From a bacterium (GTDB lineage: Bacteria > Margulisbacteria > Marinamargulisbacteria > SXXA01): a DNA stretch of 64,000 bases. The stretch spans positions 9,349-73,348 of the forward strand of contig CANIAP010000001.1 of assembly GCA_947465765.1 (NCBI GenBank). Direction: 5' to 3'. The position numbers were made by a program, and so were the translations under genes. The notes beneath the pieces were generated by a model. It had not been told where the DNA came from and ran no database searches. It was given only the letters and a program-made list of their open reading frames with translations. Shown one piece after another: positions 10,026-31,833 of the stretch; position 1 is the first letter of the stretch; every line of letters begins with the position of its first letter.

Positions 10026-10031
10026 TTTGGT

Positions 10032-11063: not shown

Positions 11064-11114
11064 GAACAGAAGATGGTCCAGTCGTAGTGCGGGGGATAGT
11101 GTTTAATTCTCTAT

Positions 11115-11669: not shown

Positions 11670-11683
11670 AGCCCTAATCTACA

Positions 11684-17121: not shown

Positions 17122-17151
17122 CCGATCCCCATTTTTGAAAGTGGGGATCGG
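17122..17151 (-). terminator. GC-rich hairpin (10-bp perfect stem CCGATCCCCA/TGGGGATCGG, 10-nt loop) 17 nt 3' of the GDH stop codon; no U-tract
   Basis: Read directly from the sequence. It is flanked by C5 and a GCGAGGGGG x2 direct repeat that could extend the stem. Confidence 0.3.
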
Positions 17152-17167
17152 CGAGGGGGCGAGGGGG

Positions 17168-20100
17168 TTACCCGTTCAAAAAGTTGAGCCGATTTACAGC
17201 GACGGTGAGCGTGGTTAGGTTGGTATTTCGTGAGCCTTTGAGTTCCGATAGGGTTTCGAAATATATCTTGAAGTCCAATTGATGAAGCTGTTGGAGTGCG
17301 TTGATGGCGTCATCAATTTGTGGTTTTTTCGTAGTATCTTTCCCTGTCACCTGGCGAATGATGGTAAATTTTTGCATTTTCACGGTTTGGAGCAAAATGC
17401 CCTTATGCGACAATTCCCACTGGGTTCGTGGGTCGAGATTTTGGATGGCATTTTCGACCCATTTTAATTCAAATTTGGATTCGATGGTGTCGATGAGGTC
17501 CACGATTTGGGCGATTCCCTTGATTCCGAATTTTAGCTGAAGAAATAATATGTCAGTAATACAATTTAACCCATCGAGGCTCACCAATTGTTTGGCCGCT
17601 GTTTCGGGGAGTCCCCGGTGTTTCCATCGGGCCACTGCGGCTTTATTGCTTGTGATTTTGGGGAGGATTTCGGCGACTAACTGACCAATTAATGGTGCCC
17701 ACTCGAATGAGGTGTCAAAATTGGGGAGCAATAGAAGAGACTGTGTCCATTCCGTAAGGTAATGCTCGATCTCGATGAGTGCCGTGTATTTATCCTGTTC
17801 CGGAATGGGTTCCTGGATTATCAACTGGCGGAGTTCGTGTGTTCCGAATGATGAGTCCAAAAGGTAATAGGCTTTGGCAATTTGGTCCACTGGTTTTCCG
17901 GTCATTTGCTCCATCTGGAAGAAAAATAGAATTCCGGCTTGATTGATAATTTTGTTGGTGAGAATCGTTCCCAATATGTTTCGTTGAAGACGATGCTTGG
18001 GTATTTTTTTGCCAATTTTGTTTCGAATAGTGACCGGAAAATAATGCTCATAAAATTCGATAAAATAGGGGTCGTCGAGGATGTTAGAATTCATCAGACG
18101 ATCGTAAATGTTCATTTTTGTGTAGGCTTGAATAACCGCTAAAACGGGACGAGGCAACGATGTTCCTGATGCCGCCATTTGTTCAAGATCCGATATCTCA
18201 GGAATTTGCTCAGTTTTGGCATCCAAAAAGCCGTTCGCAACGTAGTTCTGAATCAATTTGATAAAGATCCCCAATTGTTTCTTTGACCGGATACTGTCCA
18301 TGGACAATAGTCGATGTTGGCCTTGGTTGTTGGCAAGTACCAACTCTGACACCTCATTTGTGGCGGCCTCGAGTAGCTCGTTGCGGTCGTCCATTGAATT
18401 AAGTAAGTTTTCCTCGAGCATTTGTTTGAGAAGAATTTTGATGTTGACCTCGTAGTCAGACATGTTGACGCCGGCGGAGTTGTCGATTGCGTCCGTGTTG
18501 ATTCGTCCACCTGCCAATGCAAATTCAATTCGGGCGGGTTGTGTGACGCCGAGATTGGCCCCTTCGCCAATGACCGCTGCCCGGCAGTCGGTGATATCAA
18601 TCCGTACCGAATCATTGGTGGGATCGCCCACGGAAGATTGGGCTTGAGCACTGCCTTTAAAATAGGTTCCGATTCCGCCGAGCCACATCAAATCAACTTT
18701 GGCTTTAAGAATAAATCGGATCAATTCTTCGCCATTGATGACCGCTTCTTTAATGCCAAGTAATTCACGGATTTCGGGTGTGACAATGATTTCTTTGGCT
18801 TTCCGTTCAAAGACGCCGCCCCCTTGACTGATCGCGGAGGGGGAATAATCAGTCCATGCACTTCGGGGGAGATCAAATAGACGCTTGCGCTCGTCCCAAC
18901 TAATGAGGGCATTGGGGGAGGGATCAACGAAAATGTGAGCATGATTAAATGCGGCATGAAGTTTGATGGTTTTACTCAATAATAGGCCGTTTCCAAATAC
19001 ATCTCCGGACATATCTCCAATTCCAACTGCAGAAAAGGATTCTTTGTCGATATTTTTGCCCATTTCCATAAAATGAAGTTTGACGCATTCCCAACCCCCC
19101 CGAGCGGTGATGGCTTCTTTTTTGTGGTTGTATCCAATGCTTCCGCCGGAAGCGAACGCATCGCCCAGCCAAAATTCATATTTTTCCGATATTTCGTTGG
19201 CGATATCTGAAAATGACGCTGTGCCTTTGTCTGCGGCGACGACCAGATAGGGGTCGGTTTGATCGTACGCGATCACGTGATGCGGATGTTTGATGGACCC
19301 GTTCGTGTCGATATTGTCGGTGATATCCAATAATGCCGAAATGAATTTCCGATATTGAACGATAGACTCATTGGCGGCGTCTTCTTTTGACGCTAATGGA
19401 CGCTTGAGAACAAATCCGCCTTTTGAACCGACTGGGACGATCACCACGTTTTTAGTCTGTTGAGTTTTGACGAGGCCCAATACTTCTTTTCTAAAGTCAT
19501 CATGGCGGTCTGACCATCGTATTCCGCCCCGAGCGATGGGTCCAAATCGGAGGTGGGTCCCTTCCATGCCGACGTCGTGAACGTAGATTTCGCGATACGG
19601 TGTCGGGGCAGGCATGAATTTAACCTTTTTCGATTCAACTTTGATTGAGATAAACGTGTCTCGATTGTGCTTGGGGATATAAAAATTGGTTCGGATAGTC
19701 GCCTCAACAAGGTTAAATAAGTGGCGCAAAATAGTGTCGTCGGAGACTTCTTGTACTTGGGTCAACGTGTCATGAAATTCGTGGCTGGCCCGGGGGAGTA
19801 ATACTTCGATTCGATATTCTTGTTTGCCAAATTGGGGATCGACCGAAAATTTGGTCTCAAAGTAGCGAAATAGCGCCTTTGTGCTGGGTTTGTGGGCCAG
19901 TAAGACCGTATTTACTTTGTCTTTGCTATAGGAAGTTCCCAGCTGGAGGTAAAGGTTGCGATAGGTTTGGAGGATGTTAATGGCCCGCCATTCCAGTTCT
20001 GCACCTAAGGCAAGCGCATTGAGGCGGTCGTTTTCAGTTCGGCCTTCGAAAATTTCAGTAAGTAGACTGTTTAAAATCGATTTGAGGCGTTTCTCGTCAA

Positions 20101-21940
20101 TTTTGCTGCGGTCAGAGTTTCCCAAACGGAATGAATGGATATACCCGTACAATGTCTCTGGGGTGCCCACTCGGGTGGTGAGTTCGTCGAACACATACAC
20201 CCCGAGATTTTGAAGAATGGGCATGATATTGATAAGGTCGATTTTGTTGCGGTTATAGATGCTTAGCATCGAGGCCTTGCCTTTAAGTGATGAGTTCTCC
20301 GTATTCACCGGGCCGAGGTCAAATTGGATCGTATTTTCGTGGACCACTTTTTCGAGAAACAGAATGTCTCTGACGGTTTCGACGGGGTTTCGACGCACGC
20401 GGTGATGACTGGGAAATGCATTAATATAGTGAGCGTATAGGCGTTGTGCCGATTGCCCTGGGAACTGGGTTTGAATGGCGTCTTTAAGGCGTTCTTCCCA
20501 TGGCTTAATAAGCTCGCGAAGGTCGATTTGCAGATGGGTTTCACTGGGTTTCCAATGGGTATCGTCGGTTTGCTCAAAATAAAAATGGAGTCGGGTATGA
20601 TCTGGGCCGTCGACCTCGACCACTTCAAATTGTGAATGAGGGACGTGTTGGATGAGATAGTCTCGAATGAGTTCGATATTGGTGCGTGTAAATAAATGCT
20701 CTGGGACCGTTACCATGAGTAAGGTTCTGCCGATGCCGGTGGCTTCACGGTGGAAGCAATAGACGTCGCTAGGATTCGTGATCGATAGCACTGATTCAAC
20801 GATAAAAAGCAGATCGTCAGTGGCGCTTCGAAACAGTTCGAACTTCGGAATCGACGTAAAGATACGAATGACTTCGTTGTAGTCGTAGCTGCCAGGAAGC
20901 ATTCGTTTTGCGTCGAAGATGTGTTTCATCTTCAAATGAATAATTGGGGTTTCAAGGTTTTTAGCGAGTAACGAGCTGCGTTTTAGGACCCCAATAAAAT
21001 TATGTTCTATGGTTTGTTTGTCGATGGTCATTCGAAAGCTGAGCCGCATAAGGTGCTCAAATCTCTGAATAGGAGAATTGATCGGAATCGTGTCAAAAAC
21101 AAAGGGTGATTGATTGGTCCTCATTCTCCAGCTATGAGCGGACAATACGCTGCCGATTTGAGGGTGATCAGTCTGGTAGAGTGGGCTCAAAATGCCCACT
21201 CCATCGAAAATAGGCGCATTTGAGTTTGCAAAGTTTAATGCCGCGTACCCAAAAAACGAAAAATTGTCTTGTTGAAGCCAATCAATCAGATTGATCCACT
21301 CGTCTTTGGTTTCCGCCAGAATCACTTTGCTGAGGCTGACTTCAGCTTTAAGTTGGTCTAACTTTTGTCGGAGGGGGGTCTGGCTGAGTTGGGCATTTTG
21401 GAGTGCATTCATGTGCCGTTGAATTTGAGATAAAAAGACATCGACATGGGAGTCGTCTTCGATACCCTCGAACTCGATATAGGTAACGGAGAAGAGTCGC
21501 GTATTTGCTGTGGGTGTGGAGATCTGTTGAACTTGATTCGATGGGTTTATCGAAACAGTCATAATCGGGTGCAGCAATTTTGTGATTTTGCAGCCAAATT
21601 CTTTAAATACTTCTGAAAATGTCATGACCATAAACATCGCATCGGGGACGACATATTCGAGTACTCGGCGAATGCCTACCAATTCTGAATTTTGGTCGAG
21701 AGTAAAAATTCTGATATCACCGCCAGAAGCCAACGCATTCGTGAAAAACTGGTAGCGCTCTCCTATAAATATTTCGAAGTCATCGGGCGAGTAATTTTTA
21801 AGCGTTCGTGTGGAATTGGCCTGGAGATAACAGGTTGCAAATTGCCTGAGAATGGGGTCTTTGGGAAGCGCATTAATAAGTGGTTCAATCGCAGAGTTAT
21901 CGTCGGATTGGGAGACAGGGGTCGATTGTGGTTTCGGCAT
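17168..21940 (-). CDS. Large NAD-specific glutamate dehydrogenase (Bac_GDH family, ~180 kDa)
   Basis: 1590 aa. The catalytic core GGIRWSDRHDDFRKEVLGLVKTQQTKNVVIVPVGSKGGFVL...AADKGTASFSDIANE is typical of the ~1600-aa NAD-GDH of Streptomyces, Pseudomonas and Mycobacterium. Confidence 0.9.
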   Translation of the reverse strand: MPKPQSTPVSQSDDNSAIEPLINALPKDPILRQFATCYLQANSTRTLKNYSPDDFEIFIGERYQFFTNALASGGDIRIFTLDQNSELVGIRRVLEYVVPDAMFMVMTFSEVFKEFGCKITKLLHPIMTVSINPSNQVQQISTPTANTRLFSVTYIEFEGIEDDSHVDVFLSQIQRHMNALQNAQLSQTPLRQKLDQLKAEVSLSKVILAETKDEWINLIDWLQQDNFSFFGYAALNFANSNAPIFDGVGILSPLYQTDHPQIGSVLSAHSWRMRTNQSPFVFDTIPINSPIQRFEHLMRLSFRMTIDKQTIEHNFIGVLKRSSLLAKNLETPIIHLKMKHIFDAKRMLPGSYDYNEVIRIFTSIPKFELFRSATDDLLFIVESVLSITNPSDVYCFHREATGIGRTLLMVTVPEHLFTRTNIELIRDYLIQHVPHSQFEVVEVDGPDHTRLHFYFEQTDDTHWKPSETHLQIDLRELIKPWEERLKDAIQTQFPGQSAQRLYAHYINAFPSHHRVRRNPVETVRDILFLEKVVHENTIQFDLGPVNTENSSLKGKASMLSIYNRNKIDLINIMPILQNLGVYVFDELTTRVGTPETLYGYIHSFRLGNSDRSKIDEKRLKSILNSLLTEIFEGRTENDRLNALALGAELEWRAINILQTYRNLYLQLGTSYSKDKVNTVLLAHKPSTKALFRYFETKFSVDPQFGKQEYRIEVLLPRASHEFHDTLTQVQEVSDDTILRHLFNLVEATIRTNFYIPKHNRDTFISIKVESKKVKFMPAPTPYREIYVHDVGMEGTHLRFGPIARGGIRWSDRHDDFRKEVLGLVKTQQTKNVVIVPVGSKGGFVLKRPLASKEDAANESIVQYRKFISALLDITDNIDTNGSIKHPHHVIAYDQTDPYLVVAADKGTASFSDIANEISEKYEFWLGDAFASGGSIGYNHKKEAITARGGWECVKLHFMEMGKNIDKESFSAVGIGDMSGDVFGNGLLLSKTIKLHAAFNHAHIFVDPSPNALISWDERKRLFDLPRSAWTDYSPSAISQGGGVFERKAKEIIVTPEIRELLGIKEAVINGEELIRFILKAKVDLMWLGGIGTYFKGSAQAQSSVGDPTNDSVRIDITDCRAAVIGEGANLGVTQPARIEFALAGGRINTDAIDNSAGVNMSDYEVNIKILLKQMLEENLLNSMDDRNELLEAATNEVSELVLANNQGQHRLLSMDSIRSKKQLGIFIKLIQNYVANGFLDAKTEQIPEISDLEQMAASGTSLPRPVLAVIQAYTKMNIYDRLMNSNILDDPYFIEFYEHYFPVTIRNKIGKKIPKHRLQRNILGTILTNKIINQAGILFFFQMEQMTGKPVDQIAKAYYLLDSSFGTHELRQLIIQEPIPEQDKYTALIEIEHYLTEWTQSLLLLPNFDTSFEWAPLIGQLVAEILPKITSNKAAVARWKHRGLPETAAKQLVSLDGLNCITDILFLQLKFGIKGIAQIVDLIDTIESKFELKWVENAIQNLDPRTQWELSHKGILLQTVKMQKFTIIRQVTGKDTTKKPQIDDAINALQQLHQLDFKIYFETLSELKGSRNTNLTTLTVAVNRLNFLNG

Positions 21941-22082
21941 GGGTGATTGTCCTTACGCTGAAAAATTGGAGTGATTAAAGTTGATTTCGGGGGAAGTTCC
22001 ATAGTAACGGAGACCCGTCATGGGGGCAAACGGACAGCCATCGTTTTTTTTGCGACCGCTCTTTATGGTACACTTCGTTTTA

Positions 22083-24107
22083 ATGACTTCTATCGTCAAA
22101 AAAGCGATAAATGCCCCAATAGGGCATGACGACCGAGATCCGATTGTTTGGAATCCTCCTGGGATTTTTGAAACACGGGTGGGCGATTTTATTCATGGGG
22201 TCAATCGCCAGTTTGACCTAACGATTGATAGCTACGCGTCACTTCATCGGTGGTCTGTCACCGAAATAGGACCGTTTTGGCAGACTTTATTTGATACGGC
22301 GGGTTTAATCTATGACGGAGATTCGGCTTCGGCGGTTGAACGTGCGTGTCTTTGGCCCCGGCCCCAGTGGTTTCCCAATGTTCGAATTAACTACGCCGAA
22401 AACATGCTTAAGAATAAGTCCGACCACCCGGCACTTATTTATTATTCGGAGCATCAGCCGGTTCAAACGATCACGTTTTCGGCCCTTTCGGAACAGGTGG
22501 CACAGCTGTCGGATTGGATGCGCCAGCGAGGAATTGGGGTAGGAGATGTAGTTGCAGGATTAGTTTCCAATTGCCCGGAGGCGGTGGTGGTGCTCTTGGC
22601 AGCGGCGGCGGTCGGAGCGATTTGGACGTCCTGCTCACCCGATTCCGGGACACAGTTCGCTATTGATCGATTCAGCCAGACACTGCCTAAGTTATTGGTC
22701 GCTGTCGATGGCTACGTATATGACGACACGATTTTTACCGTTGGAGATAAGATCCAAGAATTACGGGATGGGTTGCCGACGCTTCAGTCGATGTTGATTA
22801 TTTCTCGAATTCCTGGAGCTGTTTCTGACGACGACCTGGTATTTTATGAATCGATTGTAACGTCGGTCAATCCGGTCCCTGAACTGCGATTTGAGCGGCT
22901 TAGTTTTTCTCACCCCCTCTACATTTTGTATTCATCAGGAACGACGGGTAAGCCAAAATGTTTGGTGCATAGTGCGGGAGGCAGCCTTCTTCAACATATC
23001 AAAGAACATCGACTTCAATGTGATCTTCGACCCCTGGATCGGTTGATGTATTACACGACAACATCGTGGATGATGTGGAATTGGTTGGTGTCGGGGTTGG
23101 CCAGCGATGTCACGGTTGTCTTATTCGAAGGGAAGCCAGATCCTGCGGTGGTTTGGGAGTTTATTCGGACTGCTGAAGTCAATGCGTTTGGCACCAGTGC
23201 CTCTTGGATTTCGTTATGCCAAAAAACGAAGGTGGGGCCGACGGCTGCTCAGGTGGCCTCGATTTCCCTATTGATGTCGACGGGCTCCGCGCTGTTGCGT
23301 GACCATTTTGATTATATTTACTCAGAGATTAAGTCCGATATTCAAGTCGCGTCGATTTCGGGTGGAACCGATATTGTATCTTGTTTTGCACTGGGAGGGC
23401 CTGTTCCTGTGCGTCGAGGACGCCTTCAGTGCGCCGGTTTGGGCATGGCGGTGGAGGTGTGGGATGACGATGCCCAGCGGGTGTTTGGGGTCCAAGGCGA
23501 ACTGGTATGTACCCAGCCGTTTCCGTGTATGCCCGTTTATTTCTTGAACGATTCGACCGGTGAAAAATATCATTCGGCGTATTTTGAGCGGTTTGACGGA
23601 ATTTGGACCCATGGTGATAGTGCGATTCAATATGAGGATGGAAGCCTTGAAATTGTGGGCCGATCCGACAGCACGATTAAGCATCACGGAGTTAGAGTGG
23701 GGACGGGTGATCTCTACAATGTGTTAGAAGGTATCCCGGCGATTCATGATTCGTTAGTAGTTGGCCGACGGGTGGGGGATGACGAAGACATTATCGTGTT
23801 TCTGGTACTGAACTCAGGGGAACTTCTTGATGCGACTTTGAGGCGAGATATTCGATTGGCGTTAACGGCCCAATCTCCGTGGTTTAAACCAGATGCCCTT
23901 TTTAAAGTGTCTGATATCCCCGTTACCGCCAACGGAAAAAAGAGCGAAATTCTGGTTAAAAATCTACTCAACGGGACTCCCATAAGCAATTTGTCGGTGA
24001 TTAAAAATCCGAGATGTTTAGTGGAATATCAGGAAATTGCAAAACAAATATCCGATGCGGAGGCACTCAAACGGAGTCGATCGGGGCGTACAGAGTCTAG
24101 ATCTTAG
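22083..24107 (+). CDS. Acetoacetyl-CoA synthetase (acetoacetate-CoA ligase, AMP-forming)
   Basis: WPRPQWFPNVRINYAENML N-terminal region, the AMP-binding motif YSSGTTGKPK, and a C-terminus like AACS. I trimmed the N-terminus to the Met at 22083; the first 21 codons of the supplied ORF look non-coding. Confidence 0.8.
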   Translation: MTSIVKKAINAPIGHDDRDPIVWNPPGIFETRVGDFIHGVNRQFDLTIDSYASLHRWSVTEIGPFWQTLFDTAGLIYDGDSASAVERACLWPRPQWFPNVRINYAENMLKNKSDHPALIYYSEHQPVQTITFSALSEQVAQLSDWMRQRGIGVGDVVAGLVSNCPEAVVVLLAAAAVGAIWTSCSPDSGTQFAIDRFSQTLPKLLVAVDGYVYDDTIFTVGDKIQELRDGLPTLQSMLIISRIPGAVSDDDLVFYESIVTSVNPVPELRFERLSFSHPLYILYSSGTTGKPKCLVHSAGGSLLQHIKEHRLQCDLRPLDRLMYYTTTSWMMWNWLVSGLASDVTVVLFEGKPDPAVVWEFIRTAEVNAFGTSASWISLCQKTKVGPTAAQVASISLLMSTGSALLRDHFDYIYSEIKSDIQVASISGGTDIVSCFALGGPVPVRRGRLQCAGLGMAVEVWDDDAQRVFGVQGELVCTQPFPCMPVYFLNDSTGEKYHSAYFERFDGIWTHGDSAIQYEDGSLEIVGRSDSTIKHHGVRVGTGDLYNVLEGIPAIHDSLVVGRRVGDDEDIIVFLVLNSGELLDATLRRDIRLALTAQSPWFKPDALFKVSDIPVTANGKKSEILVKNLLNGTPISNLSVIKNPRCLVEYQEIAKQISDAEALKRSRSGRTESRS

Positions 24108-24933
24108 ATTTCCTAAGAAATTCAGGCGAGCCAATCGGACGAAGGATATCGGGTGCGTTATGAATTGCGTCTACGAATTGATCAATTAGGGCGGCATTGT
24201 TTTCGGCAATTTCGCCAGACGATAGTAGATGATTATTCTCGAATCCAATCCGAACATGACCGCCGTTGCGTACGGATTCTAACATGCACTCCAATTCGTC
24301 TTCGCCAAATGCACATACTGTCCAGTGGAGGGACACGTCGCTTAATGTTGCGTTGTGGGCTTCAATAAACGGAGCCAATTCGGATGGGTGGCCTTTTTGC
24401 CCGGTTTTTTTTCCCAATACGTACAGCAAAAAATACTGAGGTTCGTTGGGGACAATTCCACGTGTCCGTAACTCTGCAAAATATCGGACGTCATCATCTG
24501 AATAACAAATGTATTGAACCAAAATATCTTGGGCATGAGCCCAGTTTAAAAACGATTGGGCGGCAGGTTCAAACGAGGGGTCTGGAACCAATTCCCGAAT
24601 CCCAATGGATGCCGACTCAGGGACCAATGCCTGAATCGTTGAGATCATGTCGGGGGCTGAATATATCCCTACGGTTTCGGTCGTCACTTGAAGCACCATT
24701 CGGTCACCGACGGCCTTTCGAATTGCGGTCAATGCCGTCCGATACCGATCGGGGTCTAATGAATGGCGTTGGGCGTCGTCGCGGACATGAAGGTGAAATA
24801 ATGAGACGCCGGCATCGGCACATCGAACGGCTTCTGCTGCAAGTTCATCCGGTGAGATGGGAATCGTAGGGAGGTCCATCTTGGTTTTTCGTGCCCCGTT
24901 TGGGGCCACGCAGATTGTAATCGCGCGGGTCAT
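24097..24933 (-). CDS. BKACE-family beta-keto acid cleavage enzyme (3-keto-5-aminohexanoate cleavage enzyme-like, DUF849)
   Basis: ICVAPNGARKTK...SLFHLHVRD is the N-terminal BKACE signature, in a 278-aa TIM-barrel-sized protein. Confidence 0.8.
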   Translation of the reverse strand: MTRAITICVAPNGARKTKMDLPTIPISPDELAAEAVRCADAGVSLFHLHVRDDAQRHSLDPDRYRTALTAIRKAVGDRMVLQVTTETVGIYSAPDMISTIQALVPESASIGIRELVPDPSFEPAAQSFLNWAHAQDILVQYICYSDDDVRYFAELRTRGIVPNEPQYFLLYVLGKKTGQKGHPSELAPFIEAHNATLSDVSLHWTVCAFGEDELECMLESVRNGGHVRIGFENNHLLSSGEIAENNAALIDQFVDAIHNAPDILRPIGSPEFLRKSKI

Positions 24934-26270
24934 TGAATCACAGAGTGGATCGCTTGGGCTAGTTTACTGACCAGTTCATCAATCTGAGTTTCAGTGATGA
25001 TGAAGGGGGGGGAAATCATAATGTGGTCGCCATGTTTTCCATCTAAAGTTCCGCCCATCGGGTAGCACATTAGACCGGCGTCCATTGCCGCTTTTTTTAT
25101 TTTTACATTGATTTTGAGAGTGGGGTCGAATGGCGTTTTGGTGGCGCGATCCTGGACCAACTCTAATCCCCGGAATAGCCCTCGGCCTCGAATATCCCCC
25201 ACATTCGAGTGATTTCCAAACTCCGCGTGGAGTCGTTTCGAGAGAATGTCGCCCATCGTTCGCACTTGGCTGATCAATTGATCACGTTCAATAATTTCTT
25301 GAACTTTAAGTGCTGTAGCACAGGCCAATGCGTGCCCCATGTAAGTATGGCCATGTTGAAAAAATCCGGTACCCGTCTGAATTGCACTAAATATCGAGTC
25401 GGAGACCAGTAATGCGCCGATGGGTTGGTATCCTGCACCCAAGCCCTTGGCTATGGTGATCATGTCGGGAATAATGCCTTCTTGTTCACAGGCGAAGAGA
25501 CTTCCCACACGGCCCATTCCGCACATCACTTCGTCGAGAATCAGTAGAACATCATACTGATCGCAGATCTCACGGATCCGCTTAAAATATCCAGGCGCTG
25601 CAGTGACACAGCCCATGGTTGCGCCGACCACTGGTTCTGCAATGAACGCGGCTACCGTTTCGGGCCCAACATGCAAAATTTCGGTTTCTAGTTCATTCGC
25701 GACACGTAATCCATATGCCTCAGGTGTTTCATCCGATTTCTGTCCACGGTATTCATAACATGCAGAGATGTGTGATGTGGGTACCAGTATCGGGTCAAAC
25801 ATTGCGCGACGCCACAGATTGCCGCCGGCTGATAATGCGCCGATTGTGTTGCCGTGATAGCTTTGCAACCGGGCAATAACTCGGTGTTTTTGATTGCGGC
25901 CTGTTTCGACAAAATATTGCCGTGCCAATTTAAGTGCGGCTTCTACGGCCTCTGATCCGCCAGACAAAAAATAAACGGCATCGATTCCTGGCGGGGCATT
26001 TAGAGTTAAAAACTCAGCCAACTGTTCCATGGGCTCGTTTGTGAAAAAACTGGTATGCGCAAATGCCATTTGGCGTGCCTGGTGAGCAATTGTATCAATG
26101 ATTTCGAGGTTGGAATGCCCAAGACAGGAGACGGCGGCTCCGGACGACCCGTCTAAATAGCGTTTTCCATTTTGGTCGATGAGGTAACATCCATCGCCTG
26201 CAACGGCGATGGGCATCGACCCTAGCGTGTGGCGATGAAAAACCTTGGTTGAGGCGAGTGGCGGTGTCAT
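24930..26270 (-). CDS. Class-III (aspartate aminotransferase family) PLP-dependent aminotransferase, omega/beta-amino acid type
   Basis: LSGGSEAVEAALKLARQY..., DEVMCGMGRVG, and the lysine-bearing region ITIAKGLGAGYQPIGA. 446 aa. Overlaps the BKACE gene by 4 bp. Confidence 0.8.
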   Translation of the reverse strand: MTPPLASTKVFHRHTLGSMPIAVAGDGCYLIDQNGKRYLDGSSGAAVSCLGHSNLEIIDTIAHQARQMAFAHTSFFTNEPMEQLAEFLTLNAPPGIDAVYFLSGGSEAVEAALKLARQYFVETGRNQKHRVIARLQSYHGNTIGALSAGGNLWRRAMFDPILVPTSHISACYEYRGQKSDETPEAYGLRVANELETEILHVGPETVAAFIAEPVVGATMGCVTAAPGYFKRIREICDQYDVLLILDEVMCGMGRVGSLFACEQEGIIPDMITIAKGLGAGYQPIGALLVSDSIFSAIQTGTGFFQHGHTYMGHALACATALKVQEIIERDQLISQVRTMGDILSKRLHAEFGNHSNVGDIRGRGLFRGLELVQDRATKTPFDPTLKINVKIKKAAMDAGLMCYPMGGTLDGKHGDHIMISPPFIITETQIDELVSKLAQAIHSVIQ

Positions 26271-26272
26271 GG

Positions 26273-27790
26273 TTATTTCGTCAATAAGAAACCGGTATCG
26301 TCGCTAATAATGCGATCCATATATCCTGATATCCATAGAGCGTCAGGGTTGCTTCTGGCGACAATAATATTGCCGAGAATGTCCCCGCCGGATGGGGCGC
26401 GTAAAACCTTCAAAATAATGGTGCCGTTGGTGACACCGATGACTTCCATTTTTCCGTATTCAGTTGACATGGTGTATCGGGCTTGTTTCTCTACACCGGA
26501 TAACCCGCGTTGGGATTCGGTATAAATTCGCCATGCGGTTTCTACGGGCACGGCGAAGAGCCGGTGGCCTTCGATTTCTCGACATTGAAACAAATAATGA
26601 TTCCCGATCCCTTTAGAGTAAAGCTCTCGTTGCAAAATGTGGAGGGCTTTGGCATCGTCGTTCACATCGGCAATGATCGGCGTCTGATTCTCGAGAGAAA
26701 TAAAATTACCTCGGGAGGTCAATCCTTCAACGGCGTTTCGGACGGTTTCCATCCATACATATCGGCTATTTACCTTGACGTAGTGCCCGTCATCAGATTT
26801 TTCAAGAAATTCATCGGGATGGGTGAAGTGGACGGCGAATACGACGCGAACCCGAGGGAATAGTTTATGGAATCCATCGAGCATTGCAAAGAAATCTGCG
26901 TCGACGCGCTCGGGGAAAAAGGCCAATTCTTTGGTGCCGATCCGTACTTGTTCGACCCCAGCCTGGGCGAGGCCTACCATAAACGTGGCAATTCGTTTGT
27001 CCATAAGGGCGAGAGGATCTCCGCCGGAAAGAAGTGCTTCTCGAATCGGATAAATTCGCTTCCCTGTTTCGGGGTCAAAGCCACGATTGGATTCTACCCA
27101 GTGATTATGTTTTCGGATGTAGTCGAGGTGGGCGTGGAACTCATCGGGGTTGATCGCTGTTTTGCCGGTTTTTTGAGTAAATAAATCGAGTCGATAACAA
27201 TACCGACAATGAGACGAGCAGGTGCTTGATACCATGAAAAGCATCATTTCATATTTGTGAAGTGCGCCAGGTACAGGAGAAAATTTATTCTGATTGGAAG
27301 GGTCTGCTTCCCCACTTAAATCTTCGGTTTCTTCGGCACGTGCTTTGACTAAGTTGCGGATGGGTTGACTCTTCATCGCTAACCGCATGTAGTAGTCGGT
27401 GATTTTGACTTTCATACGGTCTTCGATATCTCGCTCAGTCCCTCGAAGTTTATCAAATTCAGCTAACTCTTCAGGTGTATAAAATTCTTTAAATTCATCT
27501 GAAACCGCCCCTTGTGAAAAGGGACGAAATGACGCGGTTCCGGCGCCATGTTTGCCGCCACGATCATGTCTTTTTGCGGGGATCAAACTTAAAAATAAGG
27601 CTTGTTTGACTTCGTCTGCCATTGTTCTCAAATCGGTGGTGTTAAATGTAGTGAGATCGTGAATTCCGAATGTGCCTGCAAGATCGGCTTGGAGTGTTGA
27701 CGGGTGAGGTGCCGCATTTTTAGGTTCCTCGATCGTCGATTCAATGGTTTGGGTAGCGGTTATTTCTTTTTGTGTATTCTGGGTAGTCAT
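26273..27790 (-). CDS. KamA-family radical SAM aminomutase (lysine 2,3-aminomutase-like) with an N-terminal extension
   Basis: CSSHCRYCYR is the CxxxCxxC cluster of the KamA family. The C-terminal PLP-binding region is KamA-like. 505 aa versus ~416 for canonical KamA. Confidence 0.85.
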   Translation of the reverse strand: MTTQNTQKEITATQTIESTIEEPKNAAPHPSTLQADLAGTFGIHDLTTFNTTDLRTMADEVKQALFLSLIPAKRHDRGGKHGAGTASFRPFSQGAVSDEFKEFYTPEELAEFDKLRGTERDIEDRMKVKITDYYMRLAMKSQPIRNLVKARAEETEDLSGEADPSNQNKFSPVPGALHKYEMMLFMVSSTCSSHCRYCYRLDLFTQKTGKTAINPDEFHAHLDYIRKHNHWVESNRGFDPETGKRIYPIREALLSGGDPLALMDKRIATFMVGLAQAGVEQVRIGTKELAFFPERVDADFFAMLDGFHKLFPRVRVVFAVHFTHPDEFLEKSDDGHYVKVNSRYVWMETVRNAVEGLTSRGNFISLENQTPIIADVNDDAKALHILQRELYSKGIGNHYLFQCREIEGHRLFAVPVETAWRIYTESQRGLSGVEKQARYTMSTEYGKMEVIGVTNGTIILKVLRAPSGGDILGNIIVARSNPDALWISGYMDRIISDDTGFLLTK

Positions 27791-27992
27791 ATGCCCTATT
27801 CTCCTCTTTTTTTTACGAAGTAACAGTCTTAAAAGTACCGGCCCCCCCCTATGGGGTACCCGGGCTAAACGTGTGCACTTTATACGGGGGAGGGTGTAAA
27901 TGCTAGGAAAAAATTCTAATCGGATGTTTTGGCGGTGGGATCTTCGGGTATAATTGAACTATTCCAAAAATAGAAAACTATGGAGGTCTTTC

Positions 27993-28916
27993 GTGGCCGT
28001 TAGCTATGTTGTTTTATTAGAATCTCAATCGATGCTCCCTCTTTTTTTTGAGAAATTTCGCGAGATTTCGGTATCGAGAGGGGGCGAATCCGATGCGTTC
28101 GATGTGGTCGCTGACTCAAAAACGAAGTTGATTTTGTCGGGGGATATCGTTGGGTTTGTCATGTGGGATGGGCTGGATCCAGTGGGATTGGCGTGGGTAG
28201 AGCGGATGACGCCGACCTATGGGAGTATTCTGGTCTATACGGCTGGGCGAGAGTATCAGGCGGATCTGGTGAATTGGTTGGTGGATTCCAAGCTGGCGGT
28301 GGGTGTGATGGCCGAGTTACTTCATTTTGAAGTCGATGAGTCTATTTGTGACCTATTTCGCGCCCGAGGGTTGATGGAGATTCCGCGTCAGCGGATGGTG
28401 TGCCATTTGCCTGAAACTCTCGACTATCCTCAGATTCCGGATGGGTACACCTTGTTGCCCTTGAGTAATAAAACGGCGTTACAAGTTGCCAATCTCAGTG
28501 TTTCCGCCCATAAGGTCAGCGGTGACTATCGAGGATATCCTGACATGGAGACGGTAGAGGGGCGATTGCGTATGGAGCATTTGGTGCACTCTCAATTTTA
28601 TGGACCGCTCTGTCACCCTGCATCGGTGGGGCTCATGGTAGGTGATGAAATGCATAGTGTGATTCTCAATCTTTTAATTCCCTGCTGGGGTCAGGCAAAA
28701 ATGCCGTGGATCTATGATGTTGCAACCGCGACTGAGGCAATGGGGCGTGGTCTTGGCGAATGGATGCTTACCTATACCAAAGCCATCTTTGTGGATTTTA
28801 ATTTCACAATGTGGGGATTGGCGGTGTCTCAATGCAATGTGGGGGCGATTCGTGTGTATGAGCGGAATGGGTTCGTGGTGGTCGATACGTTTTCGGAGTT
28901 TTTGCAACACGCTTAG
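27993..28916 (+). CDS. GNAT-family N-acetyltransferase
   Basis: The C-terminal motif A region is RGLGEWMLTYTKAIF...VYERNGFVV. I placed the start at GTG 27993, which has GGAGG 6 nt upstream. The TTG at 27954 in the supplied ORF lies inside a TATAAT box. Confidence 0.6.
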   Translation: MAVSYVVLLESQSMLPLFFEKFREISVSRGGESDAFDVVADSKTKLILSGDIVGFVMWDGLDPVGLAWVERMTPTYGSILVYTAGREYQADLVNWLVDSKLAVGVMAELLHFEVDESICDLFRARGLMEIPRQRMVCHLPETLDYPQIPDGYTLLPLSNKTALQVANLSVSAHKVSGDYRGYPDMETVEGRLRMEHLVHSQFYGPLCHPASVGLMVGDEMHSVILNLLIPCWGQAKMPWIYDVATATEAMGRGLGEWMLTYTKAIFVDFNFTMWGLAVSQCNVGAIRVYERNGFVVVDTFSEFLQHA

Positions 28917-28954: not shown

Positions 28955-30364
28955 ATGGAATTGCGGGGAAAAGCATTTCGAAAAATACTAATCCAACGGG
29001 CGGATCGTTTGGGCGATGTGATCTTTACGTTGCCTGTCCTCAAATGGATCCGGATCCAATACCCTGGTGCTGAAATTCATTATTTGGCTTCCCCAAATCC
29101 GGCGGAATTTTTAGCGACACAGTCGCTAGTCGATCAGGTTCATAGTGTGAATTCTGATATGGGGTGGATGGATGTTTTAACGCTTGCACGGTCGTTGCGA
29201 CGGCAGTCATTCGACTTATATATATCATTATGGAACGACCCGAAGATGGCTTCGTTGGGGTGGTTGGCAAATATTCCGGTTCGAATCGGTGATTCAACCA
29301 ATCAAAGCATCGGATGGGTGTATACCCATACCGTTCGGCAACGGTGGGAATGCGTAGCGACCCATCAAATTGAATTTAATATGCAATTACTGATGCCGTT
29401 GGGGTGGCGCGCTAAGGCGGGATGGTCCTGGCATATGGACGTGGATTCGACAGCGTTGCGTATTGTTGAGGAATTGGTGACCGATGCGAATGAATCAGCG
29501 ATGTCGGTGGTCACTTTCTTTTGTGGGACGGGGGGCTCGAATGTACCCATTCCGGATTCGGTGATTATTGCGGCAGTGGAACAATTGTCGGAGGATGCGT
29601 GCGTGGTTCTTTTGGGACAGGTGGAGGCGGGTTCTCCCCTGCGGTCGTTGACGATTACCGGGGGGATTAATCGGCTGAATCAAACGACAGTTTCTGAACT
29701 AGTGGCGTGGATTTCAGTGTCTGATGTGGTGATTGGCGCAGATACCGGGCCCATCCATATTGCGGCGGCGTTAGGACGATCGATTGTCTTTTGTCCGGTT
29801 CGAAAATCTAACTTGCCGACTCGATTTGGTCCGTGGACTCCCCATGTCGAGATCCTTCGTCGGGACTATTTGTGCCGGACGGTGCCGCCGCATGTCTGTT
29901 TGGACCCAGACTGCGAAGCACTCCCTCGGGCGAGCGATATTGTTGGGGCGGTCGAACGGTTATTGGATGGGCATGATCCCATGGGGTATCGCATGTTAAA
30001 GACGTTGTTTTTAAAGGAATCGATTCGTATTTTGGTGATTGTAAAATCGCCAGTCCATCGTCATGCCATGATGCGTTTGGCTAAGCGGTGGCGATCCACT
30101 GGCCTTGTCATTATCCCTGTCCTTCAGCCGCATGTGTCCGTGTTCGACACGGTTCAACTCTGTTTGCGATATAACACATTAGTGGTCGTGTGTGCCGATA
30201 TGCCGAGGTGGAAGATAGGGGCCGTCCGCCTTGTCATTGGGATCGGATATCAATATCTGCCTCCTGTTGTAGCGCGCATTGCATTATCGGTGAATGAAGA
30301 CGAAACGGTGTTTTTGGGGTGGGTTGAAGACTGGCTAATGGCCGGTAGCGGAGTAGCGGTATGA
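28955..30364 (+). CDS. GT9 glycosyltransferase (ADP-heptose:LPS heptosyltransferase family) with a ~120-aa C-terminal extension
   Basis: N-terminus RILIQRADRLGDVIFTLPVLKWIR, and GADTGPIHIAAALGRSIV near the C-terminus of the GT9 fold. Another ~120 aa follow with no GT9 similarity. Confidence 0.7.
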   Translation: MELRGKAFRKILIQRADRLGDVIFTLPVLKWIRIQYPGAEIHYLASPNPAEFLATQSLVDQVHSVNSDMGWMDVLTLARSLRRQSFDLYISLWNDPKMASLGWLANIPVRIGDSTNQSIGWVYTHTVRQRWECVATHQIEFNMQLLMPLGWRAKAGWSWHMDVDSTALRIVEELVTDANESAMSVVTFFCGTGGSNVPIPDSVIIAAVEQLSEDACVVLLGQVEAGSPLRSLTITGGINRLNQTTVSELVAWISVSDVVIGADTGPIHIAAALGRSIVFCPVRKSNLPTRFGPWTPHVEILRRDYLCRTVPPHVCLDPDCEALPRASDIVGAVERLLDGHDPMGYRMLKTLFLKESIRILVIVKSPVHRHAMMRLAKRWRSTGLVIIPVLQPHVSVFDTVQLCLRYNTLVVVCADMPRWKIGAVRLVIGIGYQYLPPVVARIALSVNEDETVFLGWVEDWLMAGSGVAV

Positions 30365-31833
30365 GAATATTATTAGTTCGGCCGGATGCAATAGGGGACG
30401 TCGTATTAATGGTTCCCCTTCTCAATACCATTCGACAGGCGTATCCAGATGCCGAGATTTATACACTCCAGCAACCGTATACGATCCCGTTACTTCAAGA
30501 TCATCCGTCGGTAACGGCTATTATTCCGGATTGGAGAAAAATTCGACGGTCGCGGGGTATCAAGGGGTTTTTGGCCTATTCTCGGTATTTACGATCGTTT
30601 GGATTTGATATGGCGTTTTTTCCGTACCTGGAGCCGTACTATGTGTTTTTGGCGATTGCCGCAGGGATCTCGACGAGAGTCGGGGATCGAAATAAGATTT
30701 TTCTAAGACCCTTTCTGACCCATTCGGTTCCTTTGAATTTTCGGAATTTGGTTTTGCATGAATCTCAACAGTCGGCCCATTTGGTTTGGGGAGTTAAGCC
30801 GGAGGCGATGTTGGATTTGACGATGAATTTGAGTGTGTCGGATACGGACCGGGAATTGGCCATGGTCGCGTTGACGGAGGCTGGCGGAGACCCTGCATTG
30901 CCGTATATCGTCATTCATCCGCGATCGGGGGGGGGGAACCGTCCGTGGCTTCCGGCTAAATACGCGGCACTGATTGATCATTTAATGGACCGGTCGGAGT
31001 ATCAGATTGTATTGACGGGATCGGGGCCAAAAGAAATTCAAGTGATTTCGGATATTCGGAATTTTACACGTCATTCTTTTGTCGATATTTCAGGAAAAAC
31101 GCCGCTAAGGGTGTTGATGGGATTAATTTCTCAGGCGACGGTTGTCATTGGGACAGATACCGGTCCGACTCACATTGCGGCTGCGTTGGGGGTTCCGGTT
31201 GTCAGCGTGTCGCCCACAAAATTTGTGAAGGCGTTGCGGTGGGGTCCATGGCGAACGCCCAACCGAGTGGTGAGCGAGTCTCAAGCCTGCGCATTAGTGT
31301 GTCGTCCGTATAAGTGTAAGAAAAATATTTGTTTAGATGCCATTGATAGCTATCGGGTGAGTGACGCGGTCCTCAGTGTTGCCCTTGAAGCGCCGGGGGG
31401 CGTTAATTCAATTCCGACCAAGCATCGGTGGATACAGACCGGTATGCATACCATGGTGTATTGGGCGGGACGAGAGTCCCAACTCCAAGTCGTGGTGGAT
31501 CAATATAATGCGCTTAAGCGCAACGGGTTTGTGGTGCACCTAGGGACAAGATCTTGGCGCTTTAGGCGATCGTTAGCGGCGGCATTAGGAATCGAATCCG
31601 ATGGGATTGCCGTTATGCCTCCGTTTGATTGGGTGGGGATGGTGTGGGCGTTGATGACCCACGATATTACGGTGGTTTTTGTGGTGGGGCCGGTGGTCGG
31701 ATGGTACTGGTTTTGGGTCCGTCAAATTTGCGCCTTGCGACAATACTGTCCGCCGGTAGCATTGGGAATTTCAACCCCGTCGGGGTCGATGGACGAGATC
31801 GTTTTGCAGATTACCGCAGGGGTATATCCTTAG
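30361..31833 (+). CDS. GT9 glycosyltransferase paralogue with a ~150-aa hydrophobic C-terminal extension; contains an in-frame G10 tract
   Basis: MRILLVRPDAIGDVVLMVPLLNTI ... GTDTGPTHIAAALGVPVV. The start overlaps the previous stop (ATGA). The G10 at 30937-30946 encodes S-G-G-G. Confidence 0.7.
   Translation: MRILLVRPDAIGDVVLMVPLLNTIRQAYPDAEIYTLQQPYTIPLLQDHPSVTAIIPDWRKIRRSRGIKGFLAYSRYLRSFGFDMAFFPYLEPYYVFLAIAAGISTRVGDRNKIFLRPFLTHSVPLNFRNLVLHESQQSAHLVWGVKPEAMLDLTMNLSVSDTDRELAMVALTEAGGDPALPYIVIHPRSGGGNRPWLPAKYAALIDHLMDRSEYQIVLTGSGPKEIQVISDIRNFTRHSFVDISGKTPLRVLMGLISQATVVIGTDTGPTHIAAALGVPVVSVSPTKFVKALRWGPWRTPNRVVSESQACALVCRPYKCKKNICLDAIDSYRVSDAVLSVALEAPGGVNSIPTKHRWIQTGMHTMVYWAGRESQLQVVVDQYNALKRNGFVVHLGTRSWRFRRSLAAALGIESDGIAVMPPFDWVGMVWALMTHDITVVFVVGPVVGWYWFWVRQICALRQYCPPVALGISTPSGSMDEIVLQITAGVYP
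30937..30946. repeat. G10 homopolymeric tract inside the GT9 #2 coding sequence
   Basis: Counted directly: tcGGGGGGGGGGaac. Confidence 0.9.

Follow-up and report, generated by a model that had tools for sequence, protein, structure and literature searches.

A candidate route from L-glutamate to acetoacetyl-CoA via beta-glutamate, predicted from a margulisbacterial gene cluster

Which amino acid enters a pathway built from an aminomutase of the KamA family, an aminotransferase, a BKACE-family protein and an acetoacetate-CoA ligase? The initial annotation of the 64-kb window (the whole stretch of DNA analysed) proposed that lysine is converted to beta-lysine, transaminated to 3-keto-6-aminohexanoate and cleaved to acetoacetate and 4-aminobutyryl-CoA, with a neighboring GNAT-domain protein possibly making N-epsilon-acetyl-beta-lysine. 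The order of enzymes that it recognized (2,3-aminomutase, non-alpha transaminase, BKACE-family acetoacetate producer and ligase) is retained here, but neither lysine as the substrate nor the CoA-transferring cleavage is. Sequence, gene context and published family screens instead favor, by a modest degree, a catabolic route that starts at L-glutamate and passes via beta-glutamate, 3-oxoglutarate and acetoacetate to acetoacetyl-CoA.

Gene organization and conservation

Every gene of the candidate cluster is present in the window at the position that the initial annotation gave it. Three genes on the minus strand, encoding a 505-aa KamA-family radical SAM protein (26273..27790), a class-III aminotransferase (24930..26270) and a BKACE-family protein (24097..24933; PF05853, 199 bits), are translationally coupled. 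The stop codon of the aminomutase gene is separated by a 2-bp gap from the start of the aminotransferase gene, which overlaps the BKACE-family gene by 4 bp (ATGA). An AMP-forming acetoacetate-CoA ligase is encoded on the plus strand (22020..24107, or from an internal start near 22083) and converges on the BKACE-family gene with an 11-bp overlap of 3′ ends; these junctions had all been described correctly. The gene for a 1590-aa NAD-specific glutamate dehydrogenase (17168..21940, minus strand; PF05088, 731 bits), not included in the initial annotation of the cluster, sits divergently beside the ligase gene. The GNAT-domain protein, with a weak C-terminal Acetyltransf_1 match (28 bits), lies in a divergently transcribed plus-strand ORF (27954..28916) whose true start is likely a GTG near 27993 with GGAGG ahead of it.

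As first reported, the window lacks KamDE (lysine 5,6-aminomutase) and Kdd (3,5-diaminohexanoate dehydrogenase), as judged from a Pfam scan of its larger ORFs that took in about 50 of the 57 of at least 150 aa. No transporter, regulator or thiolase gene was found in the window cluster, nor were genes for PcaIJ, PcaF or 3-oxoadipate:acetyl-CoA acetyltransferase.

The trio of aminomutase, aminotransferase and BKACE-family (group G6; see below) genes is shared by several lineages: it recurs in Margulisbacteria relatives (58–94% identity), whose loci retain the ligase, and in unrelated lineages (loci L116, L118, L162 and L174). The convergent position of the ligase is kept in L003, L007 and L089. 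Adjacency of the glutamate dehydrogenase and ligase genes is kept solely in the close relatives L007 and L089, while in L003, a more distant Margulisbacteria relative, a carnitine-acyltransferase-family gene replaces the dehydrogenase. Gene context links the dehydrogenase to the pathway, where its probable part is to replenish 2-oxoglutarate and set ammonia free. The GNAT homologue occurs in L007 and is kept only where the aminomutase is 87–94% identical; no homologue was found in L003 and L006 or at the remaining loci with the cluster. The role once suggested for it is thus not upheld, and it is probably not part of the pathway.

Predicted functions of the encoded enzymes

By its sequence, the aminomutase is a divergent radical-SAM/PLP 2,3-aminomutase of the KamA family. 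It belongs to a large clade of its own (here clade B), annotated mostly as ‘hypothetical protein’. Its CSSHCRYCYR motif holds the CxxxCxxC cysteines (C191, C195 and C198), and the invariant K447 of a GK motif is taken to be the PLP lysine. An AlphaFold2 model (pLDDT 88.6), for which 2A5H is the sole close solved fold, assigns it together with these motifs the fold and cofactor motifs of lysine 2,3-aminomutase. It falls below the cutoff of all NCBIfam KamA subfamily models, including those for lysine 2,3-aminomutase (TIGR03820; 100 bits, cutoff 525) and curated glutamate 2,3-aminomutase (TIGR04368; a poor 93 bits, cutoff 650). An EpmB orthologue, an identity that the initial annotation had flagged, is ruled out by TIGR03821 (111 bits, cutoff 369).

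Two arginines bear on the substrate. The invariant Arg200 aligns with Arg134 of lysine 2,3-aminomutase, which binds the alpha-carboxylate. Arg404, also invariant, takes the place of Asp293, the residue that binds the epsilon-amine (ammonium group) of lysine, and this substitution argues against lysine. The glutamate 2,3-aminomutase of Clostridioides difficile, which Ruzicka and Frey reportedly described in 2007, is said to have Lys at this position. The equivalent of Asp330 may be S442, T443 or E444, its placement being uncertain; E444 lies in the loop that precedes the PLP lysine and does not vary within clade B. The protein is predicted to be an L-glutamate 2,3-aminomutase that makes beta-glutamate.

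The aminotransferase matches PF00202 (325 bits) and the equivalog model NF005685 (PRK07483; 741 bits, cutoff 485), and its nearest solved structures are uncharacterized class-III and omega-transaminases. Among aminotransferases adjoining G6 proteins or clade-B aminomutases, those of Sinorhizobium meliloti, Thalassospira marina, Cupriavidus pauculus, L008, L106 and L174 pass the same model at 720–805 bits. Because the enzyme is encoded beside a putative 3-oxoglutarate decarboxylase, its amine substrate would be beta-glutamate, and it is predicted to be a beta-glutamate:2-oxo-acid aminotransferase yielding 3-oxoglutarate.

The BKACE-family protein retains the Zn ligands H47, H49 and E232 plus R228. 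Relative to Kce, Glu143 is replaced by Ile, Asp231 by Asn and Glu14 by Arg. Its residues R15, E86, I142, K175, F209 and N233 match, in the same order, the six that set group G6 apart according to PMC4922564 (R2, E6, I14, R17, F18 and N21), and are common to its approximately 45–60% identical relatives (with K or R at 175). A tblastn search with the protein gave a single match per replicon (42–48% identity) in S. meliloti, S. medicae and Cupriavidus, all of them taxa on the G6 species list, which also includes Vibrio (PMC4922564). We infer from these residues and matches that the protein belongs to G6. This group is described as ‘not BKACE’ and as having decarboxylation activity (Bastard et al. 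2014, as relayed in PMC4922564). The screen results given there, from 20 substrates, record activity on beta-ketoglutarate in 16 cases and on 4-hydroxybenzoylacetate in one, and zero activity on beta-ketoadipate, KAH, dehydrocarnitine or cationic substrates (PMC4922564). The accessible literature on G6 assigns it no physiological role or pathway. With the Kce Glu143 and Asp231 equivalents missing and a G6 signature instead, the CoA-transferring cleavage to 4-aminobutyryl-CoA first envisaged does not stand: the signature points to a subfamily reported as a decarboxylase rather than a CoA-transferring enzyme. The protein is predicted to decarboxylate 3-oxoglutarate (beta-ketoglutarate) to acetoacetate and CO2.

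The ligase passes both TIGR01217 (680 bits, cutoff 521) and NF002937 (743 bits, cutoff 639), an equivalog-level assignment that identifies it from sequence as a bona fide acetoacetate-CoA ligase and bears out the acetoacetate activation originally proposed. Such an enzyme fits a pathway with acetoacetate as its sole organic product.

The transporters encoded near related genes belong to glutamate or dicarboxylate types and point to glutamate-like C5 amino-dicarboxylates. The aminotransferase/G6 pair occurs with an RpiR regulator on S. meliloti pSymB and in T. marina and C. pauculus, and is followed by a TAXI-TRAP system in T. marina and L170. The T. marina binding protein closely resembles the glutamate-specific VC0430/VcGluP (PDB 8S4J; 473 bits); VcGluP binds L-glutamate and not adipate, 2-oxoglutarate, aspartate or lysine, in a panel that did not extend to beta-glutamate. 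No aminomutase was found on the same replicon in organisms with these TAXI-linked modules. In L096, genes for a clade-B aminomutase and a G6 protein adjoin a GltP/DctA-type symporter, and in L087 DctQM lies beside a G6 gene.

The proposed route and its alternatives

In the proposed route, the aminomutase, although from a separate unnamed clade, would act as a glutamate 2,3-aminomutase and shift the amino group from C2 of L-glutamate to its C3. A 2-oxo acid, probably 2-oxoglutarate, would then accept this beta-amino group in the reaction of the NF005685-type aminotransferase, leaving 3-oxoglutarate. The putative G6 protein would decarboxylate this to acetoacetate with no CoA transfer, a step based on family-level in vitro evidence in the accessible literature, and the ligase would form acetoacetyl-CoA. 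A thiolase encoded elsewhere would split the latter into two acetyl-CoA, while NAD-glutamate dehydrogenase would return the glutamate formed by transamination to 2-oxoglutarate and ammonia. The net reaction would be glutamate + NAD+ + ATP + 2 CoA → 2 acetyl-CoA + CO2 + NH3 + NADH, bypassing 2-oxoglutarate dehydrogenase. In Proteobacteria with only the aminotransferase and G6 genes beside a transporter, the two steps would consume imported beta-glutamate. No published description of this route, or of the 2-aminoadipate route discussed below, was found in the literature.

The substrate might instead be another amino acid, neutral or with a zwitterionic distal group, and the G6 substrate a beta-keto acid outside the screen. 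The specificity residues are partly mapped, the invariance of E444 is unexplained, and the screen covered just 20 compounds. This reading is nevertheless unlikely, as the product must still supply the acetoacetate-CoA ligase and the transporter contexts indicate glutamate-like C5 compounds.

Another candidate is L-2-aminoadipate, converted via 3-aminoadipate to 3-oxoadipate, which would be cleaved with acetyl-CoA to acetoacetate and succinyl-CoA; the latter would require no extra dedicated enzyme. Relevant here is a sister clade (clade A; 43–49% identical), in which the position of Asp293 is likewise occupied by Arg. Its gene neighborhoods contain PcaIJ, PcaF, a 3-oxoadipate:acetyl-CoA acetyltransferase equivalog (NF053568) and the 2-aminoadipate-forming L-piperideine-6-carboxylate dehydrogenase, and these neighbors suggest that it serves a parallel 2-aminoadipate 2,3-aminomutase route. 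The two clades differ near the active site (QCREIEGH and MSTExGK in clade B versus CGRDIVAH and SITHYxGK in clade A) and in partner families (NF005685 aminotransferase and G6 versus HemL-like aminotransferase and canonical BKACE). Since clade A is tied to 3-oxoadipate enzymes and clade B is not, partner enzymes appear to track chain length. Given also that G6 showed no beta-ketoadipate activity in the published screen, that VcGluP does not bind adipate and that no 2-aminoadipate-forming gene was found in the window, this substrate is quite unlikely for clade B.

Beta-glutamate is also a known osmolyte (PMC1224877), and the aminomutase could make it under osmotic stress, with the aminotransferase, G6 protein and ligase removing it on down-shock. 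The chemistry would be identical to that of the catabolic route and the physiological purpose different. Many clade-B aminomutase genes, among them many from Maricaulaceae and Verrucomicrobia of marine origin, stand as orphans or adjoin a class-I/II aminotransferase gene, so the clade may also serve beta-glutamate synthesis. At this locus such a purpose seems rather improbable: translational coupling of the aminomutase to two genes of breakdown would have beta-glutamate made and degraded at the same time, the catabolic NAD-glutamate dehydrogenase and ligase are adjacent, and close relatives are freshwater-type MAGs.

The original beta-lysine route, for all that it accommodates the KamA and BKACE families, the absence of KamDE and Kdd and the presence of the ligase, is highly improbable in view of Arg404, the TIGR03820 score, the lost Kce residues, the inactivity of G6 on cationic substrates in the published screen, the lack in the cluster of a gene to handle 4-aminobutyryl-CoA, the unconserved GNAT and the glutamate- or dicarboxylate-type transporters.

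Relation to known systems

Known glutamate 2,3-aminomutases comprise Eam of C. difficile (TIGR04368), a methanogen enzyme (Tunckanat et al. 2022) and IdnL4, which acts in the biosynthesis of incednine. Like these enzymes, the window enzyme belongs to the KamA superfamily and is proposed to convert L-glutamate to beta-glutamate by radical-SAM/PLP amino migration. It lies outside the Eam family because of its low TIGR04368 score, is approximately 90–100 residues longer and differs in its N- and C-terminal parts. Both have a basic residue at the Asp293 position, Arg in the window enzyme and, reportedly, Lys in Eam. The known enzymes serve osmolyte or antibiotic synthesis, whereas the gene of the window enzyme is coupled to genes for degradation.

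Lysine fermentation in Clostridia and Fusobacteria proceeds through KamA, KamDE, Kdd and Kce, with Kal or Kat. The proposed glutamate route resembles it in starting with a KamA-family enzyme, releasing acetoacetate through a PF05853-family enzyme and then activating it. It differs in lacking KamDE and Kdd in the window, in its predicted substrate, in forming the keto group by transamination rather than dehydrogenation, and in having a PF05853 protein of the G6 decarboxylase type rather than the CoA-transferring Kce. The window protein carries the six-residue signature reported for G6 (Bastard et al. 2014, as relayed in PMC4922564), and compared with that literature the proposed pathway places a G6 protein between an aminomutase and transaminase upstream and a ligase downstream. 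The lower branch of the beta-ketoadipate pathway (PcaIJ and PcaF) and the NF053568 enzyme are operonic with clade-A aminomutases, which would follow the same aminomutase, transaminase and beta-keto acid logic with one carbon more, the window enzyme itself belonging to clade B.

Gene arrangement and conservation of the cluster

The cluster (22020-27790) comprises a KamA-family radical-SAM protein of 505 aa with the motif CSSHCRYCYR (26273-27790, minus strand), a class-III aminotransferase (24930-26270, minus strand; NF005685, 741 bits against a cutoff of 485), a PF05853 (BKACE) protein (24097-24933, minus strand; 199 bits) and an acetoacetate-CoA ligase (22020-24107, plus strand). The ligase scores above the cutoffs of both curated NCBIfam models (TIGR01217, 680 bits against 521; NF002937, 743 against 639). 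These genes and their arrangement are as described in the initial annotation. The junctions are tight: 2 bp separate the aminomutase and aminotransferase genes, the aminotransferase and BKACE genes share 4 bp (ATGA), and the convergent 3' ends overlap by 11 bp. An NAD-glutamate dehydrogenase gene (1590 aa; 17168-21940, minus strand) is the divergent neighbour of the ligase, and a GNAT-domain gene that of the aminomutase. The trio of aminomutase, aminotransferase and G6 protein (G6 being the BKACE group to which the third enzyme is assigned below) is kept in loci of Margulis relatives (L003, L006, L007 and L089) and of unrelated lineages (L116, L118, L162 and L174); in L096, L099, L114 and L143, some of them short contigs, the aminomutase occurs with G6 only. 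In the Margulis loci, the ligase gene runs convergently towards the operon; adjacency of the glutamate dehydrogenase is confined to close relatives. The GNAT gene is not conserved with the cluster, and its suggested role as an AblB-like acetyltransferase has been dropped for that reason.

By Pfam, the window's larger ORFs encode housekeeping, LPS/glycosyltransferase, haem and flagellar functions. Two tandem GT9 (heptosyltransferase-like) genes (469 and 490 aa; 28955-31833) flank the GNAT gene; the second also matches polysaccharide pyruvyl-transferase, and a convergent GT2 gene follows the pair, forming an LPS/exopolysaccharide block directly beside the GNAT gene. Apart from a PD-(D/E)XK nuclease-family transposase-like gene (36880-37755), nothing resembling a mobile element was seen near the cluster. 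A second class-III aminotransferase, probably HemL, and a hemA/hemC/hemD/hemB block occupy 45754-47031 and 53086-56736, and flagellar genes lie at 48213-61021. No tRNA or Rfam families were detected in the whole 64 kb, leaving regulatory RNA without support.

Scanned with Pfam, the window's larger ORFs indeed include neither lysine 5,6-aminomutase (KamDE) nor 3,5-diaminohexanoate dehydrogenase (Kdd), both noted as missing at the outset, nor kal/kat, and no kamD, kamE, kdd or kal/kat was found in the related loci either; a classical lysine fermentation operon is rejected on the lack of KamDE and Kdd in both settings.

A divergent KamA-like aminomutase and its two clades

The Fe-S/SAM motif of the aminomutase, C191-SSH-C195-RY-C198-Y-R200, is invariant in 61 homologues. 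R200, which follows the third cysteine, is the counterpart of the alpha-carboxylate-binding Arg134 of lysine 2,3-aminomutase, and the KamA-family motif (CxxxCxxC with the alpha-carboxylate arginine) is complete. The AlphaFold2 model (pLDDT 88.6, pTM 0.88) adopts the lysine 2,3-aminomutase fold, with structure 2A5H as its sole close solved match (E 7e-20; TM-score 0.55-0.67). G446 and K447 are invariant and start the strand after residues 438-443; that K447 is the putative PLP lysine follows from this position and not from residue-level superposition. The window protein and its nearest relatives also carry an extra ~50-60 N-terminal residues missing in most homologues, and residues 1-29 are modelled as disordered (pLDDT < 50).

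The score with the curated TIGR00238 model of the generic KamA family is 119 bits, below the cutoff of 199, and the protein is taken as a divergent branch that this model does not cover. The protein scores 102 bits against a cutoff of 600 with the arginine 2,3-aminomutase model and, at 93 bits against 650, is not by sequence a member of the glutamate 2,3-aminomutase family Eam (TIGR04368). EpmB-type protein modification, an identity that the initial annotation had named as one that would refute it, is rejected by score (TIGR03821, 111 bits against 369) and by context, the gene being operonic with metabolic genes and Pfam scans of the window revealing no EF-P/EpmA domain.

Lysine had been proposed as the substrate of the aminomutase. 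In lysine 2,3-aminomutase, Asp293 is one of two carboxylates gripping the lysine epsilon-ammonium. In a profile alignment to 2A5H, this position holds Arg404, invariant in all members, and the counterpart of Asp330 is S442, T443 or E444, its placement being uncertain; the Asp293/Asp330 pair of KamA/AblA is thus not reproduced. Throughout clade B, the clade that includes the window protein, the loop preceding the putative PLP lysine carries an invariant Glu444. An invariant arginine at the Asp293 position makes a lysine substrate unlikely and an anionic side chain likely, and the score against the AblA model (TIGR03820) is 100 bits with a cutoff of 525; the lysine assignment is not supported. 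In the glutamate 2,3-aminomutase of Clostridioides difficile, Asp293 and Asp330 are reportedly replaced by Lys and Asn.

A homologue search returned 3289 protein clusters, and an aminomutase-family homologue is present in no fewer than 583 GTDB species representatives; most homologues are annotated 'hypothetical protein'. The nearest relatives of the window protein are found in Margulisbacteria-type MAGs (94% identical in L007), with aminomutases in Marinamargulisbacteria and Margulisiibacteriota MAGs at 58-61% identity. Motifs divide the family into clade A (CRFCYRE, FCGRDI(V/I)xH and SITHYxGKTE) and clade B (CRYCYR(L/S), FQCREIEGH and MSTExGKME). Clade-B genes are in many cases orphans (Maricaulaceae, Verrucomicrobia) or adjoin a class-I/II aminotransferase, contexts that fit synthesis of beta-glutamate as an osmolyte as well as its catabolism.

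Clade A, the sister clade, has a distinct set of partners and occurs widely among marine Planctomycetota, Kordiimonadaceae and Gammaproteobacteria (loci L010-L085). Of 70 species loci of clade A, 33 have a regulator (RpiR or LysR) divergent from the aminomutase, and the genes after the aminomutase encode, in this order, CoA-transferases A and B, a HemL-like class-III aminotransferase and, frequently, a thiolase. In L018 (654-7044), the CoA-transferases are PcaI/ScoA and PcaJ/ScoB family proteins and the thiolase is a 3-oxoadipyl-CoA thiolase equivalog (666 bits against 597). In L062 (9932-14030), a ferredoxin follows the aminomutase and the CoA-transferase/thiolase pair is replaced by a BKACE of the '3-oxoadipate:acetyl-CoA acetyltransferase' equivalog (466 bits against 350). 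The nearest solved relatives of the clade-A operon aminotransferase include beta-transaminases. L-piperideine-6-carboxylate dehydrogenase, which forms L-2-aminoadipate, was seen beside clade A once, in the L067 neighbourhood (6048-12710; 793 bits against 730). The sole plasmid-borne family member found, on Mesorhizobium sp. 113-3-3 plasmid NZ_AP023244 (L175, 8896-13747), has the order aminomutase, ferredoxin FdxA, aminotransferase, CoA-transferase beta subunit and adjoins a BREX defence system; its context, judged by the neighbouring genes, is clade-A-like.

The simplest reading of the clade-A gene sets is that 2-aminoadipate would be converted through 3-aminoadipate and 3-oxoadipate to succinyl-CoA plus acetyl-CoA or acetoacetate, making a 2-aminoadipate 2,3-aminomutase route a candidate entry to the beta-ketoadipate pathway; the literature searched contains no description of such a route. 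This partner set implies that the partner enzymes of the family track its substrate. 2-Aminoadipate was weighed as the substrate of the window enzyme too, and is downgraded on the grounds that the two clades have different partner enzymes and that the window BKACE matches G6.

The third enzyme and the aminotransferase-G6 module

The window BKACE-family protein conserves the zinc ligands of the family (H47, H49 and E232, equivalent to His46, His48 and Glu230 of Kce, the enzyme that cleaves 3-keto-5-aminohexanoate) and, in an alignment with Kce (2Y7D) and 3-oxoadipate-type BKACEs, keeps Arg228. The full catalytic set is not retained. The PEVE motif of Kce is VQYI in the window protein, placing Ile142 opposite Glu143, a residue with a reported catalytic role; Asp231 of Kce is replaced by Asn233, and Glu14 by Arg. 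The changes at Glu143 and Asp231 are conserved across the subfamily, and window-type changes define a large subfamily spanning Alpha-, Beta- and Gammaproteobacteria and the Margulis group.

In a re-analysis of the Bastard et al. 2014 data, the BKACE family is divided into seven groups, and the 70 proteins of G6 are called 'not BKACE, presenting decarboxylation activity' (PMC4922564). Sixteen of the activity cases recorded there are on beta-ketoglutarate (3-oxoglutarate) and one is on 4-hydroxybenzoylacetate; beta-ketoadipate, KAH, dehydrocarnitine and the remaining substrates of that account have no recorded activity (PMC4922564). The residues given as distinguishing G6 are N21, F18, I14, E6, R2 and R17, and its species list names S. 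meliloti, S. medicae, several Cupriavidus and Ralstonia species and Vibrio (PMC4922564). When these pseudo-positions are mapped onto the window protein, a mapping made in this analysis, the G6 residues correspond in sequence order to R15, E86, I142, K175, F209 and N233, with K175 being Arg in most homologues. The listed taxa also account for most plasmid and chromid records with a single 42-48% homologue of the window BKACE, and the S. meliloti pSymB copy carries the full G6 signature. On the basis of this signature and the matching taxa, the window protein is assigned to G6 and, judged by sequence, would be a 3-oxoglutarate decarboxylase yielding acetoacetate. The CoA-transferring cleavage originally envisaged for the third enzyme is not borne out, given the loss of the Kce Glu143 and Asp231 counterparts and the match to the G6 signature. 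A carnitine-type BKACE, considered on account of a carnitine-acyltransferase-family neighbour in L003, is rejected, as the window lacks that gene and G6 and the cationic group G5 have different signatures. The L003 gene (choline/carnitine O-acyltransferase family, PF00755, 230 bits; 15688-17406, in a Margulisiibacteriota MAG) adjoins the cluster in the place occupied in the window by glutamate dehydrogenase.

The aminotransferase and G6 genes also form a module in other bacteria. In S. meliloti pSymB, aminotransferase and RpiR genes are divergent from the G6 gene; in Thalassospira marina, the order is RpiR, aminotransferase, G6, TAXI binding protein, TRAP permease and Usp, an arrangement shared by L170; and in Cupriavidus pauculus, a SBP_bac_3 binding protein, RpiR, aminotransferase (59% identical to that of the window) and G6 (48%) occur without an aminomutase. 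No clade-B aminomutase was found on plasmids or chromids carrying the pair. All aminotransferases of these pairs, and those beside clade-B aminomutases (L008, L106 and L174), pass NF005685 with 720-805 bits against the cutoff of 485. A transaminase that feeds a 3-oxoglutarate decarboxylase implies that the amine is 3-aminoglutarate, i.e. beta-glutamate.

Transporters adjoin several of these genes. Against PDB 8S4J (VC0430/VcGluP), the TAXI protein of T. marina reaches 473 bits. Of the ligands tested with VcGluP, L-glutamate was bound, L-glutamine was bound more weakly, and adipate, 2-oxoglutarate, aspartate and lysine were not bound. In L173 (10036-13790; 473 bits against 8S4J) and in L170, such a TAXI-TRAP binding protein, very similar to VcGluP, is part of the RpiR/aminotransferase/G6 operon together with a permease and Usp. 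In L096, a clade-B aminomutase and G6 adjoin a GltP/DctA-type symporter, and in L087, G6 adjoins DctQM. No aminomutase was found on the same replicon in organisms with the TAXI-linked module, which may use imported beta-glutamate or have a binding protein unlike VcGluP in specificity. In L169 (7323-8846; Rhodospirillaceae), the gene directly next to a G6 BKACE-like gene encodes a DMSP-lyase-type cupin; a TAXI-TRAP transporter comes after them, with no aminotransferase in between.

A candidate beta-glutamate route and known systems

A scheme in which an aminomutase, a beta-transaminase, conversion of a beta-keto acid to acetoacetate and a ligase act together is highly probable for the window cluster; its specific form as a beta-glutamate pathway is modestly favoured. 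In this pathway, the aminomutase would convert L-glutamate to beta-glutamate, and the aminotransferase would convert beta-glutamate and 2-oxoglutarate to 3-oxoglutarate and glutamate. The G6 protein would then release CO2 from 3-oxoglutarate to give acetoacetate, a step drawn from published family-level assays and the membership assigned here, and the ligase, assigned at equivalog level, would form acetoacetyl-CoA from acetoacetate, ATP and CoA. The 2-oxoglutarate would come from the NAD-glutamate dehydrogenase, which would also set ammonia free. The initial annotation had led from lysine through beta-lysine and 3-keto-6-aminohexanoate to acetoacetate and 4-aminobutyryl-CoA; its overall logic stands, whereas its substrate, the nature of its third enzyme and the role given to the GNAT protein do not. 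The beta-glutamate route accounts for the ligase, agrees with the arginine at the Asp293 position and, unlike the earlier scheme, yields no exotic CoA ester demanding further genes.

Taken jointly, the clades can be read, tentatively and at somewhat less than even odds, as two undescribed amino-acid catabolic routes built on one widespread KamA-like clade pair in at least 583 GTDB species. If so, clade B would be a third lineage of glutamate 2,3-aminomutase, opening a 'beta-glutamate pathway' that takes glutamate or 2-oxoglutarate to acetyl-CoA units without 2-oxoglutarate dehydrogenase, gives a physiological role to orphan G6 'BKACE' decarboxylases and NF005685 aminotransferases, and covers the use of beta-glutamate by rhizobia, by Cupriavidus and by marine Proteobacteria. 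On the same reading, clade A would be a 2-aminoadipate 2,3-aminomutase, leading lysine-derived 2-aminoadipate through 3-aminoadipate to the beta-ketoadipate pathway; this would constitute a new branch of lysine catabolism and a natural conversion of 2-aminoadipate to 3-oxoadipate, of interest for engineered adipate production. Further glutamate catabolism avoiding 2-oxoglutarate dehydrogenase would be relevant to anaerobes and reduced genomes such as those of Margulisbacteria. Functions would also follow for three large mis- or unannotated families, namely 'hypothetical' KamA-like proteins, the '3-keto-5-aminohexanoate cleavage protein' of G6 and the 'aspartate aminotransferase family protein' of NF005685.

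Full-text literature searches returned no description of a clade-B or clade-A pathway, and no beta-glutamate degradation route is described in the literature searched. For beta-glutamate, which is abundant as an osmolyte and also a metabolite of marine and gut settings, KEGG has one reaction only according to a 2025 paper, a gap that a defined degradation route would fill. Parts of the proposed route are already known: the decarboxylase activity of G6 has been recorded in vitro, and acetoacetate-CoA ligase is ordinary. Other KamA subfamilies likewise have known glutamate 2,3-aminomutase activity, used there to make osmolytes or antibiotic precursors. The window protein has a basic residue, Arg404, at the Asp293 position, as Eam (TIGR04368) of Clostridioides difficile reportedly does with Lys. 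As in lysine fermentation, amino-acid catabolism by the window cluster would be opened by a KamA-type aminomutase.
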